Origin: Escherichia coli
Lineage (GTDB): Bacteria; Pseudomonadota; Gammaproteobacteria; Enterobacterales; Enterobacteriaceae
DNA length: 64,000 nucleotides
NCBI RefSeq assembly: GCF_013122565.1
Contig: NZ_CP053258.1
Strand: one strand, 5' to 3'
The notes beneath the pieces were generated by a model. The model saw only the letters and a program-made list of their open reading frames with translations, made no database searches and had not been told where the DNA came from. Shown one piece after another: positions 25,551-36,880 of this stretch. The position numbers and the translations under genes were made by a program. Every line of letters begins with the position of its first letter. Position 1 is the stretch's first letter.

Positions 25551-28016
<2,466 letters not shown>

Positions 28017-28132: not shown

Positions 28133-29650
28133 ATGGAAAGAATAATGCAAAACAGAAAATGGATTTTGACCTCGCTGGTAATGACTTTTTTCGGCATCCC
28201 CATACTGACGCAATTTTTGGCAGCGGTTGTTGCTATGCTGGGGGGCGGGCTTGCCGCTATTCTTGAGGTTTGCAATTTACTCTTTACGCCAGCAATTTAT
28301 CTTCTACTCAACGTCTTTATGCTGACTCTGGGGGCGATAATAATATTTTTCTCTGGTCGCGTGTGGGCGGGCGATAGTGCACCAGAAAAAAAAGAAATAG
28401 CCGTCTGGCGACAATGTCTTTTTTTAGTACCTGCTTTATTCACCCTGGTTGGCTGGATAATCACGCTACATCTGGCAGATTATCAATTTCGCCAGATGGG
28501 AGACGGTTGGTTGGCAAACCTTATGCTTCCCTGGTTGGGCGTTTTTTTAGTCTCATTAGTGGGTGGTGAGTACTGGTGGATAGTCATTATACCCGTTGGC
28601 GCGCATATCAGTTTTTCGCTGGGGTACGGTTGGCCGACCAGACATCTTTTAACGGGCACGTCCGGGTTACGTTGCCGTAATTCCCTCTTGTTTATCCTTC
28701 TCATGCTTGGTTTTGTCGCCGGTTACCAGGCTTATTTATATAAACAGCTTAATCCCGGCGTCGGTGTGCGTGAAAATATTGATACCTGGGCCTGGCGACC
28801 CGATAAACTCAATAATCAACTGACACCACTGCGTGGTAAACCGCAAATTCAGTTCACGCAAAACTGGCCGCGACTCGATGGTGCTACGGCGGCGTACCCA
28901 ATTTATGCCTCTGCATTTTATGCTTTAAGCGTTATACCGGAAGATTTTCACGCCAGGAAATATCTGGAGAACTCTCGTACCCCCGATGCGTATAACAGGA
29001 TTGTTAAAGGTGATGCCGATATTATTTTTGTGGCGCAGCCCTCCGGTGGGCAGAAAAAACGCGCTGAGGAATCGGGCGTCACTTTGCTGTACACGCCTTT
29101 TGCCCGTGAAGCGTTTGTTTTCATCGTCAATGCAGATAACCCGGTTAATTCCCTGACCGAACAACAAGTGCGTGACATCTTCAGTGGCGCAATTACCAAC
29201 TGGCGCACGGTTGGCGGTAACGATCAGGAGATCCAGACCTGGCAACGCCCGGAAGACTCAGGTAGCCAGACGGTGATGCAGGCGCAGGTCATGAAAAATG
29301 TACGTATGATCTCGCCGCAGGAGACCGAAGTGGCTGAAATGATGGGAGGGATGATTAAAGTTGTTGCCGAATACCGTAATACAAACAACTCAATAGGCTA
29401 CACCTTCCGCTATTACGCAACGCAAATGAATACCGATAAGAATATCAAATTGTTAGCGATTAACGGTATTGCACCGACTGCGGAAAACATCCGTAACGGC
29501 AAATATCCCTATATCGTCGATGCCTTTATGGTAACGCGGGAAAATATGACGTCAGAAACGCAAAAACTGGTGGAATGGTTTTTAACGCCGCAGGGGCAAA
29601 GCCTGGTGGAAGATGTGGGTTATGTGCCGATGTATCCAACAATGAAATAA
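28133..29650 (+). CDS. membrane-embedded protein with C-terminal PstS-like periplasmic binding domain
   Basis: 505 aa. N-terminal ~200 aa contains about 5-6 hydrophobic helices; C-terminal ~290 aa resembles PstS-family binding proteins (GATAAYPIYASAFY, WQRPEDSGSQTVMQ, VGYVPMYP). Start could be 28145. Confidence 0.55.
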   Translation: MERIMQNRKWILTSLVMTFFGIPILTQFLAAVVAMLGGGLAAILEVCNLLFTPAIYLLLNVFMLTLGAIIIFFSGRVWAGDSAPEKKEIAVWRQCLFLVPALFTLVGWIITLHLADYQFRQMGDGWLANLMLPWLGVFLVSLVGGEYWWIVIIPVGAHISFSLGYGWPTRHLLTGTSGLRCRNSLLFILLMLGFVAGYQAYLYKQLNPGVGVRENIDTWAWRPDKLNNQLTPLRGKPQIQFTQNWPRLDGATAAYPIYASAFYALSVIPEDFHARKYLENSRTPDAYNRIVKGDADIIFVAQPSGGQKKRAEESGVTLLYTPFAREAFVFIVNADNPVNSLTEQQVRDIFSGAITNWRTVGGNDQEIQTWQRPEDSGSQTVMQAQVMKNVRMISPQETEVAEMMGGMIKVVAEYRNTNNSIGYTFRYYATQMNTDKNIKLLAINGIAPTAENIRNGKYPYIVDAFMVTRENMTSETQKLVEWFLTPQGQSLVEDVGYVPMYPTMK

Positions 29651-29675
29651 CCCTTGAGAGAAGGGAATCAGGGCG

Positions 29676-30677
29676 ATGAATAAATTCACAGAAGTTTTAC
29701 TGCTAGGTGCGGTATTACTGGCGGGATACGCCGACCGGGAAGCATACTATAACAGCGTCAGGGAAGAAGAGAGTCATGGACTGACTTCTCTGCGGGGACA
29801 GCCTGAATTACGTTACAGCGAAGATTGGTCAAGATGGCCCAGAGTGTACGGCGCTACCGCCTTATACCCCCTGTATGCTTCTGCATATTATGAATTAGTA
29901 CCGGAGCCGAAAGATGCGGATCAAACCTCACTGGCCTGGCAGGCGTATGGTCTGCAGCAAACCCGAACAGCTGAAGCCTACGATAATCTGATTAAAGGTA
30001 CTGCGACTGTTATTTTTGTCGCGCAACCTTCTGAAGGGCAGAAAAAACGTGCAGAAGAAGCGGGAGTTAAGCTGAAATATACCGCGTTTGCCCGCGAAGC
30101 CTTTGTCTTTATCGTTGATATCAAAAACCCGGTGAATTCACTCAGCGAACAGCAGGTCAAAGACATTTTTAGCGGTAAAGTGAGTCGCTGGAATAAAGTC
30201 GGTGGCAGCGACGAACGCATAAAAGTGTGGCAGCGCCCGGAAGATTCCGGTAGCCAGACGGTAATGCAAGAGTTAGTTATGCAAGGCACACCGATGTTAC
30301 CCGCTAAAAAATCAACCATGGTTGATCTTATGGGTGGGTTAATTACCGAAGTCGCCGACTATCAAAACACGCCATCTTCAATCGGTTATACCTTTTATTA
30401 TTATGTTACGCGTATGAATAGTAATATGCTCAAAATGCGCAAGCAGATCAAATTATTAGCCATCAACGGCGTCGCCCCCACTGAGGAAAATATTCGCAAC
30501 GGATCTTATCCCTATATTGTGGACGCCTATATGGTGACCCGTGAAAATCCAGCACCGGAAACGCAAAAGTTTGTCGACTGTTTTTTAAGCCCGCAGGGGC
30601 AACAGTTGGTGCAGGATGTGGGGTATGTGCCTTTATACCCGATTACGAACTCTCGTAAAAAGGATTTTGAAAAATGA
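29676..30677 (+). CDS. secreted PstS-like periplasmic binding-domain protein, paralog of the preceding gene
   Basis: 333 aa with N-terminal signal peptide; shares GATALYPLYASAYY, WQRPEDSGSQTVMQ and VGYVPLYP with the upstream gene. Confidence 0.55.
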   Translation: MNKFTEVLLLGAVLLAGYADREAYYNSVREEESHGLTSLRGQPELRYSEDWSRWPRVYGATALYPLYASAYYELVPEPKDADQTSLAWQAYGLQQTRTAEAYDNLIKGTATVIFVAQPSEGQKKRAEEAGVKLKYTAFAREAFVFIVDIKNPVNSLSEQQVKDIFSGKVSRWNKVGGSDERIKVWQRPEDSGSQTVMQELVMQGTPMLPAKKSTMVDLMGGLITEVADYQNTPSSIGYTFYYYVTRMNSNMLKMRKQIKLLAINGVAPTEENIRNGSYPYIVDAYMVTRENPAPETQKFVDCFLSPQGQQLVQDVGYVPLYPITNSRKKDFEK

Positions 30678-30952
30678 AAATATCAATAAGTAAACTTAGT
30701 GAATTTAAAAAGGTTTCTTTATTATTTCTGGCCTACTCATTATTTATTACTGCTGGGTGTGTCAGTCATCAGAATGTTACTGAAAGTATAAAAGAAAAAC
30801 AGAGTTATAATATTACAAGGATACAGGGGAAACCCGTATTACAAATTCCCGAAAAGGAAGCAACGTGGTTGACCGTGGCGAGGGCCACTACGTTATATCC
30901 ATTGTACTCTTCGGCATATCACATGGTTATAGTTGAACCCAGTGGACACTGA
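30674..30952 (+). pseudogene. truncated third PstS-like paralog with lipoprotein signal peptide
   Basis: 92 aa; lipobox ITAGC, then only the first ~45 aa of the binding domain (IQGKPVLQIPE...ATTLYPLYSSAYH) before a stop; ATGA overlap with the upstream gene; very AT-rich DNA follows. Confidence 0.5.
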
Positions 30953-31027
30953 TTCTGATAATATAGAAAAATCAATGATTAACGTCTCTGTTAATATGGG
31001 TATTACTCAGTAAAGGTAAGAAAAATT

Positions 31028-31219
31028 ATGCTGAAACGATTATTTTTTATTATTCTTATTTTATCCGCAACGGGATGTTCTATTGTTGACACCTCTCTGG
31101 AGAAAAAAGACTTACTTAATTTATCTGTATATGAAAATAATATTGTTGATAATTCAGTGTTAATAAGAGTTGTAGCCAGTCAAAAGGTAAAAGAGACCTG
31201 GTATATATGCAACGAATAA
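31028..31219 (+). CDS. small putative lipoprotein (hypothetical)
   Basis: 63 aa; signal peptide with lipobox LSATGC; in the AT-rich block. Confidence 0.35.
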   Translation: MLKRLFFIILILSATGCSIVDTSLEKKDLLNLSVYENNIVDNSVLIRVVASQKVKETWYICNE

Positions 31220-31671
31220 TAGAAAAAGCTTTAACGGTTTTGCTTATGATTTACGCCGGATCAGCAGCTGCCGAAGGTAAAGTGAACGATTTATGCCACA
31301 TAGGTGATCGTGTAGATAAACTTGAGATTACAAATTATCCTCATGATTACGAGTCGCTAGTTGCAGTTGATGAGAAGCGATTGAATGAAATTTATAAATA
31401 CAAGGTTGAAATTACCTATCTTGATAATAAAGAAAGTAAAAAAATTGTTGAACTATTACAAATGGATTATGCGGAACAAGAAGAAAATGTTACTGATGTG
31501 AGGTGGCGGGTGAATATCACTTCATATGGAAATAAAAAATGTGATATCTATTTTGATGGTTTTGGCTTATGTGGAAAAATTAATGGTGAGAATGTCTGTT
31601 TCAGGCATAACGAAATGATACGGTGGATTGAGTCTCATATTTCTGTATTTCTACATAGTGTTAACGAATGA
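31207..31671 (+). CDS. small secreted hypothetical protein
   Basis: 154 aa; signal peptide ending AGSAAAEG; AT-rich codon usage. Confidence 0.4.
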   Translation: MQRIIEKALTVLLMIYAGSAAAEGKVNDLCHIGDRVDKLEITNYPHDYESLVAVDEKRLNEIYKYKVEITYLDNKESKKIVELLQMDYAEQEENVTDVRWRVNITSYGNKKCDIYFDGFGLCGKINGENVCFRHNEMIRWIESHISVFLHSVNE

Positions 31672-31690
31672 ATGTGAAAAAGGAATTTAT

Positions 31691-32143
31691 ATGCAATTTT
31701 TATTTAAAAATAATAAATTATTTTTTATAAGGATAAGGTTAGTTTCGGTTATTTTATTTTTATTTATGAGTACTTCCTTGTATGCTAAAAATCCATGTGA
31801 AGGACTTAAAGGTGATTTACCTGCGGCGCAGTTAATTCCACTTAAGAAAAATATTGCCAGGCAGTTGAATTCTGAAATGGAACAGGTAGTAGAAGTTAAT
31901 AAAGTTGAAATATTATCTTTCGATACCTTGCAGGAATGGTCAATTGTTGGTGTCGCTACCGGAGTATCAGATGATGCATTGTTAATTTATAAAGGGAATA
32001 TCACTAAAACTGATTATGTGGCATTATTTGGAGGCGCTGCAAGTATTAACGATGACATGATCCAATGGATAAACCAGAAAGCGCCGGGAATTCCAGATAA
32101 GTTGGCACAATGTTTTGCGTGGGGAGCTGTATATCGTGATTGA
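31691..32143 (+). CDS. small secreted hypothetical protein
   Basis: 150 aa from MQFLFKNNK with aagga Shine-Dalgarno 8 nt upstream; signal peptide ending LYAKNP. Confidence 0.4.
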   Translation: MQFLFKNNKLFFIRIRLVSVILFLFMSTSLYAKNPCEGLKGDLPAAQLIPLKKNIARQLNSEMEQVVEVNKVEILSFDTLQEWSIVGVATGVSDDALLIYKGNITKTDYVALFGGAASINDDMIQWINQKAPGIPDKLAQCFAWGAVYRD

Positions 32144-32161
32144 TAATAAAAGGACAACCAA

Positions 32162-32869
32162 ATGGAATTAGTTGATACGTTATTTGCAAGCCTCGCCGGT
32201 ACTGATCCTTTCACAGGCGTGGATATTACGATTGCCAAATGCGAATCGGCATATTGGGCCGAGGGCATTGTTCAGCTGCTCATTAACCAGGCCCTGGATG
32301 AAGGGGAAAAGTTCGTCGGTGCTGCCGGTCTTGAGGGATTGCTTCGATATGATGTCACATTAAATATTGGCTTAACGTCCAGCAATGTATGGCCGGGGTT
32401 TTCCCTCGATACCGCCACCATTGGCCGTCTTTGTGCCTGTGGTGCTGACTTTGGATTTGACCCTTATATCAGTGATGTACCAGATGTTCAATGTGACCTG
32501 AACACGACAAATGACTTCACCGTTCAATTTACGGCGATGCTCAACCCGGAGCGGGCGATCATAGCAAAGCGCCCGCTTAAAAAATGTGACTCCTGGATTG
32601 AGGATGTCTATATCTTTCAGGTCTTTAAAGAAGCCTGGAAGTTTCATAACGATAACAGCTTACGAGGATTTCGCGATAAGCAGGCTGAACTGAAACTCTA
32701 CGCGCGTCATTACTCAGTGGAAAATTGTATAGAGGAAAGCTGCCGTGACTGTAATAGTTGTATTCGGCCCAGCTTTTCCCTTTCTCGTAGTGCCATTATT
32801 CGCCTGAACGCGGCGAATGCTCGTTTTGTTTATCAACCGTTTACACGCGACCAGCGGGCGAGGGGGTAA
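32162..32869 (+). CDS. hypothetical protein, Cys-rich C-terminal part
   Basis: 235-aa ORF with no recognisable family; stop lies 2 nt before the next start. Confidence 0.4.
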   Translation: MELVDTLFASLAGTDPFTGVDITIAKCESAYWAEGIVQLLINQALDEGEKFVGAAGLEGLLRYDVTLNIGLTSSNVWPGFSLDTATIGRLCACGADFGFDPYISDVPDVQCDLNTTNDFTVQFTAMLNPERAIIAKRPLKKCDSWIEDVYIFQVFKEAWKFHNDNSLRGFRDKQAELKLYARHYSVENCIEESCRDCNSCIRPSFSLSRSAIIRLNAANARFVYQPFTRDQRARG

Positions 32870-32871
32870 TT

Positions 32872-33660
32872 ATGCAACCCAGTCCCGCCATGCAGAATAT
32901 TATTGCCCATGCCTGGGCGATATTTCATTTTTATCCTGCACCGCAACAGTTCAATATTTGCGTTCCTTGCTGTGTCAGCGAAGAGGTCGCGCAGGCGTTA
33001 CGGCAAACACCGTTACGTCAATTAACCGTTGAAATGATATATGAATGGAACAGTAGCGCGAGGCCTTTTGAACAACAGAATGATGAAATCCGTTACCTCC
33101 TTCCGAGACTGCTGGAATTACTGGCTCACGGTCATTGTCCTGCCATAAATGAAGAGTTATGCCTGAAACGTATTGGCGCTATTTCCCTGGACACCTGGCA
33201 GCCGGAGGAGCGTGATGTACTTACCGATTTTTCCCGCCAGTATATTCGCGATTTATTACTTACCCCGACATTGACCGATCTTGAATCTGCCCTCGTGATG
33301 TTTCATTTTGCCGGACTATCTATAACGGCTTTATTAGATGAGGCGCTGAACACGCCTGGCTATTGGGCTATCGCTTCGCTGGCCTATTTTTTGTATATCA
33401 AGCGTCCAAACGGCGAATTACGTAACGCGTTTATCTCACGCAAGCCGGATGGTGAAGTGATAACGCAGCAAATTAACGCCTGGATTGCGCAATCATGTCA
33501 CGCGCTGGCAGAACGCGCCGCGGCGGCGATTGAATGCTCGCCATCCCTTCCCGGCGGTGGACACACGGAGTACAGTGTTGACCTGAGCTACCTGATTGAC
33601 GAAAGCCTTTGTGCGCTTGTTGATTATCAATTGCTCTGGACGATGGACCGTAATGAATAA
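32872..33660 (+). CDS. hypothetical protein, paralog A of a tandem pair
   Basis: 262 aa beginning MQPSPAMQ; shares N-terminal Cys motif, NDEIRYLLPRL and other blocks with the next gene. Confidence 0.45.
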   Translation: MQPSPAMQNIIAHAWAIFHFYPAPQQFNICVPCCVSEEVAQALRQTPLRQLTVEMIYEWNSSARPFEQQNDEIRYLLPRLLELLAHGHCPAINEELCLKRIGAISLDTWQPEERDVLTDFSRQYIRDLLLTPTLTDLESALVMFHFAGLSITALLDEALNTPGYWAIASLAYFLYIKRPNGELRNAFISRKPDGEVITQQINAWIAQSCHALAERAAAAIECSPSLPGGGHTEYSVDLSYLIDESLCALVDYQLLWTMDRNE

Positions 33661-33671
33661 GGAGATTCACA

Positions 33672-34448
33672 ATGCAACCCAGCCCCGCCATGCAGGCATT
33701 AATTGAGCAGATTTATCATATTTTTCGTCGTTATCCGGTGCCGTCGAGATTTCATGTTTGTTGTCCTTACTGCTTTAGCGAAGAACAACAACAAGCCTTA
33801 AAAGGGGTTTCACTGCGTGCCATACCTTTCCCTTTATTACATGCCTGGGGAACAAGTATTGGCCCTAACCCACAAAATGATAATGAGATTCGCTATTTAT
33901 TACCCAGATTGTTTGACTTTATTGCCCAAAGGCAATTTCCAGGCATTTATGAAGGCTGCTGTTTACAGAGAATAGCAGAAGCAGATAACCAGAACTGGCG
34001 AGCGGATGAACTACAAATAATTAGCGATTTCGCCTATTTATATATGCAGGATTGGGTGTCGGTTAAGGAAGTTGTGGAGCTGGAAATAATATTAGAAATG
34101 TTTTATCGCGGTGGTATAAAGATTGAACCCTTACTTGACGCTATTATGTCCATTTCCGGTTACTGGCCGACGGCGTCAATGGCATGTTTGCTCTGGCGTA
34201 ACAGTAAAGAATACGTCGAAAATAGCGAGTTTGAGCAGAGTGATGATGATAAAACCATTACCACCCAAATCAATACCTGGGCTAGAAATAATCATCCTTT
34301 GCTGAAAGAACGCGCGCGGCAAGCGATTGAGAACCCGCTAAAACAGCCCGAACAGGGCACACGATATCAGGTCTGGGAAGACGACTGGATGATTGATGAG
34401 TGTTTGTGCGCAATGTATGACGCATCATCCGAATCATCAGGACAATAA
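33672..34448 (+). CDS. hypothetical protein, paralog B of a tandem pair
   Basis: 258 aa beginning MQPSPAMQ; paralogous to 32872..33660. Confidence 0.45.
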   Translation: MQPSPAMQALIEQIYHIFRRYPVPSRFHVCCPYCFSEEQQQALKGVSLRAIPFPLLHAWGTSIGPNPQNDNEIRYLLPRLFDFIAQRQFPGIYEGCCLQRIAEADNQNWRADELQIISDFAYLYMQDWVSVKEVVELEIILEMFYRGGIKIEPLLDAIMSISGYWPTASMACLLWRNSKEYVENSEFEQSDDDKTITTQINTWARNNHPLLKERARQAIENPLKQPEQGTRYQVWEDDWMIDECLCAMYDASSESSGQ

Positions 34449-34450
34449 AG

Positions 34451-34633
34451 ATGAATAAAATCAAACTTTATATTCCTCCGCTATTTCTCGGCTTTGTTAT
34501 TGTGCCGCTGTTGGTGTGGCCGACGGTGGTTGCGCTGGCGGCTTTTGGTATCACGCTGAGTTTTCTGGGGGAGTTACTGTTCTTAATCCCGATCATAGTC
34601 CGACGTATGTCACTTCTGGAAGCACAACTTTGA
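34451..34633 (+). CDS. small hydrophobic membrane protein, possibly the N-terminal part of a stop-interrupted gene
   Basis: 60 aa with two predicted transmembrane helices; same reading frame as the following ORF, separated by a single TGA. Confidence 0.3.
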   Translation: MNKIKLYIPPLFLGFVIVPLLVWPTVVALAAFGITLSFLGELLFLIPIIVRRMSLLEAQL

Positions 34634-34666
34634 TTATCGGCTGAATATACGCTTGTTTTCTGTGCA

Positions 34667-35050
34667 ATGGTGGGCGTTGGTTGGCAATTCTCTCGCAGAA
34701 CGTCACCTGAATTAAAAAACAGACTGCATTTTTGGCTGGTCTTTACACCGGTTTATTTCTGGTTGCTTCTGTGGAATATCATTTTCTATATCGGGCCAGC
34801 GAAAAATGCATTGCTGGAAAATATCCGCAATTTCTTTTTAACAATTGTCTGGTTACCGCTGAATTTTTCGCCACTTTGGTCCCAACCGTGGACTGACTTT
34901 GTCGGTCCAATAAGCGCACAGCTTGGTTTTGCGTTGGGATATTATTGCCAGTGGCGTAGCAAAAATAGAAGCCAGGGGCAGAAGTGGGGTGAGTGGGGAA
35001 CGTGTCTTAGTTTTGTTACGTTGGGTATGATGGCATGGGTTTTGCGGTAA
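34667..35050 (+). CDS. hydrophobic membrane protein, possibly the C-terminal part of a stop-interrupted gene
   Basis: 127 aa with predicted transmembrane helices; in frame with 34451..34633. Confidence 0.3.
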   Translation: MVGVGWQFSRRTSPELKNRLHFWLVFTPVYFWLLLWNIIFYIGPAKNALLENIRNFFLTIVWLPLNFSPLWSQPWTDFVGPISAQLGFALGYYCQWRSKNRSQGQKWGEWGTCLSFVTLGMMAWVLR

Positions 35051-35100
35051 TTTCCTGAATCAAAAAGCAGGCCAGATTGTTGACGAAGTGCGCTTTGTTC

Positions 35101-35199
35101 ATGCCGGATGCGGCGTGAACGCCTTATTCGGCCTACAAAATCATGCAAATTCAATATATTGCATAAACCACGTAGGCTTGATAAGCGTAGCGCATCAGG
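35101..35199. repeat. BIME: two inverted REP units
   Basis: gccggatgcggcgtgaacgccttattcggcctac and gtaggcttgataagcgtagcgcatcagg in inverted orientation. Confidence 0.7.
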
Positions 35200-35263: not shown

Positions 35264-36769
35264 TTACGACGCCAGCGACAACTTCTGCTGCGTATACTCC
35301 ACCAGCCACTGACTCACACGAGATTGTTGATCCGCATTCAGCCACATGCCTTGTTTTGTGCGACGCCACAGGGCATCGTCGGCGCGGCGGACCCATTCGT
35401 GATCCACCAGGTATTTCAGCTCCGCTTCGTAGAACTCATGACCGAAATCCTCCCCGAGGTCGCTTATCGCCCCTGCATTGCCGAGCAGCAGTTCGCTGTT
35501 GCTGCCGTAAGTGCGCGCGTAGTGACGTGCCAGCGATTCAGTCAGGAATGGATAGCGACGGCGCAGACGAGCGGCATAATCGTCGCGGTCACCTTCAATG
35601 GCACCACCCGGCAGCACGCTCTCTTTCGTCCACGCCGGGCCAATACCCTGATAATACGGCGTCAGTTTTTCCAGCGCATGTTCCGCCAGTTTGCGGTAGG
35701 TGGTCAGCTTACCGCCGAATACCGACAGCAGCGGTGCTTTGCCGTTTTCATCATGGATATCAAGGGTGTAATCACGGGTAATAGCCTGCGGCGAGTCGGA
35801 CTCATCATCACACAGCGGACGCACACCGGAGTAGGTCCAGACGATATCATCACGGCTTAGCTGCTTTTTAAAGTGCGTGTTATACACTTTCAGCAGGTAA
35901 TTGATTTCACTCTCTTCAATCTTCACTGCTTTCGGATCACCTTTGTATTCCACATCGGTGGTGCCGATGATTGAAAACTCGTCCATCCACGGGATCACGA
36001 ACACAATACGTTTATCTTCGTTTTGCAGAATGTAGGCTTGCTTCTGGGTATGCACGCGTGGTACCACAATATGGCTGCCTTTGATCAGGCGAATGCCATA
36101 AGGTGAGGGCAGATGCATCCCGTCGTCGAAGAACTGTTTCACCCACGGGCCGGTGGCGTTAACCAGGCCGCGCGCTTGCCAGCTATATTTTTTGCCGGTA
36201 TCGATATCTTCCGCTTCCACAATCCACAGGCCGTTTTCGCGGCGAGCAGAGGTGGCGCGAGTCCGAGTAAGCACTTCGCCGCCTTTACGCACCACCATCT
36301 GGGCGTTGGCGAGTACCAGACGGGCGTCGTCTACCCAACAGTCAGAATATTCGAATCCGCGCTTAATTTCCGGTTTTAACACTGAGTTTGCGCCAAAACG
36401 CAAACCGGTTGATCCCGGCAGGCTGGTGCGTTTACCCAGATGATCGTACATAAACAGACCAATGCGAATCATCCACGCCGGGCGCAGATGCGGACGATGC
36501 GGCAGGCGAAAACGCATCGGGAAGGCGATATGAGGGGCCATTTTCAGTAGCACTTCACGTTCAGCCAGCGCCTCGCTGACCAGGCGGAATTCATAGTGCT
36601 CAAGGTAGCGCAGGCCACCGTGAATGAGTTTTGAACTGGCGGAAGAGGTCGCACAAGCGAGATCCTGCGCCTCCAGCATCAGCACGGATAAACCGCGTCC
36701 AGCGGCGTCTGCCGCGATACCAGCACCATTGATGCCGCCCCCTATCACAATCAGATCTTTGGTTTCCAT
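35264..36769 (-). CDS. glpD: aerobic glycerol-3-phosphate dehydrogenase
   Basis: 501 aa from METKDLIVIGGGINGAG (FAD-binding Rossmann motif). Confidence 0.93.
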   Translation of the reverse strand: METKDLIVIGGGINGAGIAADAAGRGLSVLMLEAQDLACATSSASSKLIHGGLRYLEHYEFRLVSEALAEREVLLKMAPHIAFPMRFRLPHRPHLRPAWMIRIGLFMYDHLGKRTSLPGSTGLRFGANSVLKPEIKRGFEYSDCWVDDARLVLANAQMVVRKGGEVLTRTRATSARRENGLWIVEAEDIDTGKKYSWQARGLVNATGPWVKQFFDDGMHLPSPYGIRLIKGSHIVVPRVHTQKQAYILQNEDKRIVFVIPWMDEFSIIGTTDVEYKGDPKAVKIEESEINYLLKVYNTHFKKQLSRDDIVWTYSGVRPLCDDESDSPQAITRDYTLDIHDENGKAPLLSVFGGKLTTYRKLAEHALEKLTPYYQGIGPAWTKESVLPGGAIEGDRDDYAARLRRRYPFLTESLARHYARTYGSNSELLLGNAGAISDLGEDFGHEFYEAELKYLVDHEWVRRADDALWRRTKQGMWLNADQQSRVSQWLVEYTQQKLSLAS

Positions 36770-36880
36770 GCTGCCCTCATTCACTTTCGTTAAAGCTCAT
36801 AAATGTTCGTTATCGAACATATTAGCAAAGAATCGCGCTTTAGGTAACATTGAAAAAACATTTTAGAGTGATATGTATAA

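Follow-up and report, generated by a model that had tools for sequence, protein, structure and literature searches.

A membrane-protein gene at the glpD edge of the variable glgP-glpD island in an Escherichia coli strain is probably a pseudogene created by a single TGG-to-TGA nonsense mutation

The stretch of Escherichia coli DNA analyzed here (NCBI RefSeq assembly GCF_013122565.1, contig NZ_CP053258.1), referred to below as the window, is 64,000 nucleotides long and contains a 7-kb variable island that fills the interval between glgP (25569-28016) and glpD (35264-36784, minus strand), with glpE and glpG in the same flank as glpD. The island (28133-35050) has a GC content of 44%, compared with 51.8% for the window as a whole, and its last gene, which encodes a membrane protein, is the subject of this analysis. 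The adjoining block from glpD to glpG matches E. coli with up to 98.4% identity and is found in 5,425 of 5,426 complete genomes, which places the window on an E. coli chromosome. The glgP-glpD interval is a known variable region, in which the auf fimbrial operon is found in ExPEC strains, and this auf context was all that a literature search on yzgL, the island and the WP accessions returned (PMC12928451). The content of the island differs by E. coli lineage: some lineages carry nothing but PstS-like genes, others the auf fimbrial operon together with hypothetical genes, and others a full set with ankyrin and 144-aa genes. In all of the island variants examined, the membrane protein is encoded at the end next to glpD.

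Besides the polytopic membrane protein, the island as a set encodes PstS-like binding proteins anchored in the membrane, alpha-repeat paralogues in tandem and an ankyrin protein. The first gene in the window's island (28133-29650) encodes a 505-aa PstS-family protein with a hydrophobic N-terminal region, which is the portion kept as yzgL in E. coli K-12, followed by a PBP_like_2 domain. Genes for an ABC-transporter permease or ATPase were not found in the island, and a role as a conventional binding protein for phosphate uptake is therefore unlikely for the 505-aa protein. Two shorter ORFs in the island are decayed genes, as a comparison with the L013 locus shows; a 92-aa ORF at 30674-30952 is an N-terminal remnant of a 328-aa PstS-type lipoprotein (L013, 268-1254) and a 63-aa ORF at 31028-31219 is a truncated copy of a 120/128-aa lipoprotein (L013, 1460-1846). 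The gene immediately upstream of the membrane-protein gene (33672..34448, plus strand) encodes a 258-aa soluble all-alpha protein (WP_171460236.1, QJU26576.1), for which an AF2 model (pLDDT 83, pTM 0.85) predicts an all-alpha repeat fold; no significant solved relative of this protein was found in the PDB, the best Foldseek match having an E-value of 0.66. Between the membrane-protein gene and glpD lies a REP-type repeat (35062-35179), in which Rfam identified ES036 (CssrF) with 39.4 bits, above the gathering score, and naRNA4 with 32 bits, below the threshold; a contig from a Logan short-read assembly (SRR11451224) stops inside this repeat.

In the window, the membrane-protein gene is represented by two ORFs on the plus strand, the first running for 60 codons from the ATG at 34451 to a TGA at 34631-34633 and the second, in the same frame, for 127 codons from the ATG at 34667 to a TAA at 35048-35050, with a gap of exactly 33 nt (34634-34666) between them. 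The sequence and the ORF list thus agree with the earlier note, which had described two hydrophobic ORFs in one frame separated by a single TGA and 33 nt, and which had left the choice between a nonsense-mutated single gene of about 200 aa and two tiny genes. When positions 34451-35050 are read through in this frame, they comprise 199 sense codons with one internal stop, the TGA, versus 9 and 8 stops in the other two frames. In 100,000 shuffled versions of the same sequence, the number of in-frame stops averaged 10.3, and it was one or zero in just 0.02% of them; the near-open frame of 199 codons is not a chance arrangement.

DNA and protein alignment, together with the codon table, place the TGA at codon 61, where it is followed by a T (UGAU). 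The 5' part of the disrupted gene (34451..34633), which consists of codons 1-60 and the premature TGA, matches residues 1-60 of orthologues of 199-204 aa, and the 3' part (34634..35050), which consists of codons 62-199 and the TAA, is collinear with orthologue residues 62-199. An AGGA motif resembling a Shine-Dalgarno sequence is located at 34439..34442 on the plus strand, 8 nt before the ATG at 34451, where the predicted duplex with the anti-Shine-Dalgarno sequence has an energy of -4.0 kcal/mol, compared with an island background of -2.2. The stop codon of the upstream gene (TAA, 34446-34448) lies 2 nt before this ATG, a spacing that suggests translational coupling of the two genes.

Both ORF products are hydrophobic. 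The 60-aa N-terminal fragment (GRAVY 1.5) is a two-helix hydrophobic hairpin that ends after an RR loop (residues 51-52). In the read-through product, hydrophobicity is pronounced over residues 2-58 (two helices), 60-78, 91-117 and 182-199, and less marked segments lie in between. An AlphaFold model of the read-through product, of low confidence, is all-helical with seven long helices. The read-through protein had no family match in Pfam, NCBIfam, PADLOC or PHROGs, the best Pfam match to the C-terminal fragment was DUF1129 with an E-value of 0.39, which does not indicate a significant family, and a sequence search of the PDB found no relative of the membrane protein (best E-value 0.85). Judging from its sequence, the intact gene would encode a polytopic protein of the inner membrane, 199 residues long, whose family is specific to Escherichia, and our tentative best guess is that this protein serves as a small inner-membrane accessory protein of the island.

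A comparison with orthologues, which the earlier note had proposed as a check, was performed with 11 loci, all of which adjoin glpD. Four of these (L001-L004) were taken from RefSeq, six (L009-L014) came from GenBank, ENA and Logan assemblies and were reached through the neighbouring gene, and one (L016) is from Escherichia sp. E4702. All 11 loci carry a single uninterrupted ORF of 199-204 codons, which supports the single-gene option of the earlier note. At codon 61, where the window has TGA, the orthologues have TGG (L001 and L016), GGG (L003 and L009-L014) or GAG (L002 and L004), and none of the 11 loci carries a stop. The closest protein alleles (P0001-P0006, 80-84% identity) have QLWLSAEY or QLWLLAEY opposite QL*LSAEY in the window, such that Trp (TGG) is found at codon 61 in those alleles in which the flanking residues resemble the window (L001, L016 and P0001-P0006). 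Since alleles with the same flanking residues have TGG, the change would have been from TGG (Trp) to TGA, and the simplest history is a single G-to-A transition at codon 61. The nearest alleles are only about 89% identical to the window at the DNA level, and the ancestral TGG is therefore deduced from these more distant alleles, not from a sister strain; an exact look-up of the Trp-restored protein returned no record, nor did a TGR pattern scan of JGI metagenomes. Taken together, we consider it very probable that positions 34451-35050 represent one gene, not two, and that this gene has been inactivated by a TGG-to-TGA nonsense mutation at codon 61.

Among database entries, the closest counterparts are WP_000981270.1, a "hypothetical protein" of E. 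coli (200 aa, strain 2013C-4282, L001 5032-5634), and its relatives WP_001033838.1, WP_032185325.1 and WP_039020623.1, none of which is assigned to a family or a function. Like the window gene, the genes for these proteins are the last of the island before glpD, and they are collinear with it and encode the same hydrophobic segments; the closest of them shares 82% amino acid and 89% nucleotide identity with the window gene. Unlike the window gene, with its TGA, they are uninterrupted and carry TGG, GGG or GAG at codon 61. The C-terminal tail of the window gene is the same as in the L001 type. More generally, the last ~15 codons of the membrane-protein gene occur in two unrelated forms (window 34990-35050; L003 8381-8995; L012-L014 4789-5403), one ending in ...FVTLGMMAWALR, where the gene abuts the REP region and glpD, and the other in ...LAILAQGPLFILLQGIL, where the ankyrin and 144-aa genes come after it. 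The existence of two tail forms implies that a breakpoint, from recombination or deletion, lies within the 3' end of the gene.

DNA homologous to the membrane-protein gene was found in 2055 of 5426 complete E. coli genomes (~38%) and was always chromosomal. Clusters of full-length homologous proteins ranged from 196 to 204 aa and were all from Escherichia, the sources named in the protein search being E. coli, E. albertii, E. marmotae and Escherichia sp. E4702. An exhaustive search with a profile against 1.84 billion cluster representatives yielded 42 proteins, which were the family itself, fragments, frameshift fusions and one divergent full-length homologue of 184 aa (P0106). On its metagenome scaffold, the gene for P0106 directly follows, and overlaps, a gene for a 278-aa homologue of the window's 258-aa upstream protein. 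This divergent pair (L006 121-1499; ENA metagenome scaffold BECK22-1 scaffold_1394), in which the two genes overlap by 13 nt, is followed by a gene for a secreted protein with TTFRDEYGHxKG-type repeats, and its 184-aa product is the only full-length relative found that lacks an attribution to Escherichia. Within Escherichia, the upstream-neighbour family (255-264 aa) is encoded directly before the membrane-protein gene in 9-10 of the 11 orthologous loci. At L001, which represents the common island type with PstS-like genes only, the upstream neighbour is deleted and the membrane-protein gene is intact; the membrane-protein gene is therefore not strictly dependent on this neighbour.

Between orthologues, dN/dS ranged from 0.12 to 0.7 in most comparisons and reached 0.92 for the N-terminal part of the window gene versus L003. 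For the window versus L001, dN/dS was 0.47 over codons 1-60 and 0.31 over codons 61-199; the values for the window are similar in both halves of the gene and lie inside the range of intact orthologue pairs. Since dN/dS is below 1 in the orthologues and the frame contains one stop where about 10 would be expected, the parent family is a real gene under purifying selection.

A sequencing or assembly error, in which case the true genome would carry TGG and the gene would be intact, has to be considered given that a single base is involved and that searches turned up no other isolate with the TGA that is clearly independent. However, the Logan short-read assembly SRR11451224, which is stored separately, is 100% identical to the window over 3,666 bp, including the TGA, and the change is a substitution, while the usual artefact of long-read sequencing is a homopolymer indel. 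SRR11451224 may come from the same isolate, in which case it checks the assembly and not the biology. An error of this kind is in our judgement very unlikely.

Equally improbable is the second option of the earlier note, according to which the two ORFs would be two separate functional genes for small membrane proteins of 60 aa and 127 aa, each separately expressed. Both ORFs do start with ATG and encode hydrophobic products, neither half contains extra lesions, and bacterial ribosomes can re-initiate, with low efficiency, 33 nt past a stop. By comparison, the orthologous loci are unsplit without exception, and the split form is known from one strain or read set. Moreover, start signals specific to the second ORF are lacking; over the 18 nt before the ATG at 34667, the interaction with the anti-Shine-Dalgarno sequence is unfavorable (+0.9 kcal/mol, worse than the background of -2.2 and far from the -4.0 of the ATG at 34451), where four of the five other island genes tested gave -5 to -12 kcal/mol, and no promoter-like site was found between the two ORFs. 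The ATG at 34667 is itself not conserved, with six of the 11 orthologues (L003 and L010-L014) having an Ile codon at this position, and the 127-aa product would start midway through the third hydrophobic segment (residues 60-78). Two independent genes were rejected on the grounds of the absent Shine-Dalgarno sequence and promoter and the non-conserved ATG, and that option of the earlier note is refuted by the criterion which the note itself had set.

UGA is the leakiest stop codon in E. coli, and near-cognate tRNA-Trp can misread it at a low rate, which at codon 61 would insert the ancestral residue. The gene also shares with selenoprotein genes such as fdhF, which combine a UGA with a SECIS element, an in-frame UGA within a conserved frame. 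Programmed recoding, whereby the UGA would be decoded as selenocysteine or be subject to efficient programmed read-through to yield the full-length protein, is nevertheless extremely improbable and was rejected, given that the RNA 3' of the UGA contains no SECIS-like hairpin (minimum free energy -11.4 kcal/mol versus a shuffle mean of -12.2, z = +0.34, with 125 of 200 shuffles folding at least as well), that Rfam has no match inside the gene, that the UGA at 34631 is followed by U, a context regarded as an efficient terminator in E. coli, and that residue 61 of the orthologues, none of which has a stop there, is Trp, Gly or Glu and never Cys or Sec. The gene, unlike those of the fdhF type, therefore does not belong among the selenoprotein genes.

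For the preferred explanation, a single gene interrupted by a nonsense mutation, the following course of events can be proposed. Ribosomes would start at the ATG at 34451, which is preceded by the AGGA motif and lies 2 nt past the upstream stop, and termination at the UGA at 34631 would release a 60-residue two-helix peptide. The gene would be functionally inactivated, because the other transmembrane segments are missing from this peptide. Translation of the 138 codons past the stop would depend on occasional misreading of the UGA by tRNA-Trp, restoring the original Trp, or, by an alternative route, on inefficient re-initiation at the AUG at 34667.

The nonsense mutation is recent, since no second stop or frameshift was found elsewhere in the 199-codon frame and there is no excess of amino acid changes; the TGA allele was seen only in a single strain or read set. 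Decay is frequent at this locus. In protein searches, the family was represented by over 20 distinct forms with a frameshift, truncation or fusion, some of them from complete genomes, and one C-terminally truncated form of 182 aa has 503 member sequences. The 92-aa and 63-aa remnants in the window's own island are further instances. In E. coli K-12, the island has been lost except for yzgL (b3427), a fragment of the first island gene that matches residues 1 to ~80 of the window's 505-aa PstS-family protein (74% identity), and the membrane-protein gene is missing altogether. Like the pseudogene in the window, yzgL is a product of decay at the same locus; unlike it, yzgL is the remnant of a different gene and arose by a large deletion, not by a point nonsense mutation. 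The TGA lesion is in keeping with the decay of this locus across many lineages, and has produced an ordinary nonsense pseudogene in a decaying accessory island.

A more speculative proposal, to which we assign a low probability, is that the intact gene is part of an undescribed, Escherichia-specific accessory system of the glgP-glpD interval, for example a putative orphan immunity or protection array, with the TGA allele as a hypomorph. If this were true, the allele would be a hypomorph and not a null allele, because misreading of the UGA by tRNA-Trp would restore the wild-type residue. For an orphan array of immunity genes from a polymorphic toxin system, a linked toxin would be expected; among the ORFs of the island, no toxin domain was found in searches with Pfam, NCBIfam and PADLOC.

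With regard to annotation, the appropriate entry for the two ORFs would be a single pseudogene interrupted by an internal stop, in place of two small membrane proteins. Beyond annotation, the lesion itself has little significance and is a further case of gene decay in the hypervariable glgP-glpD island. Of wider interest is the family to which the disrupted gene belongs: although no function or relatives of these membrane proteins are known, they are encoded by about 38% of the complete E. coli genomes and are under purifying selection.
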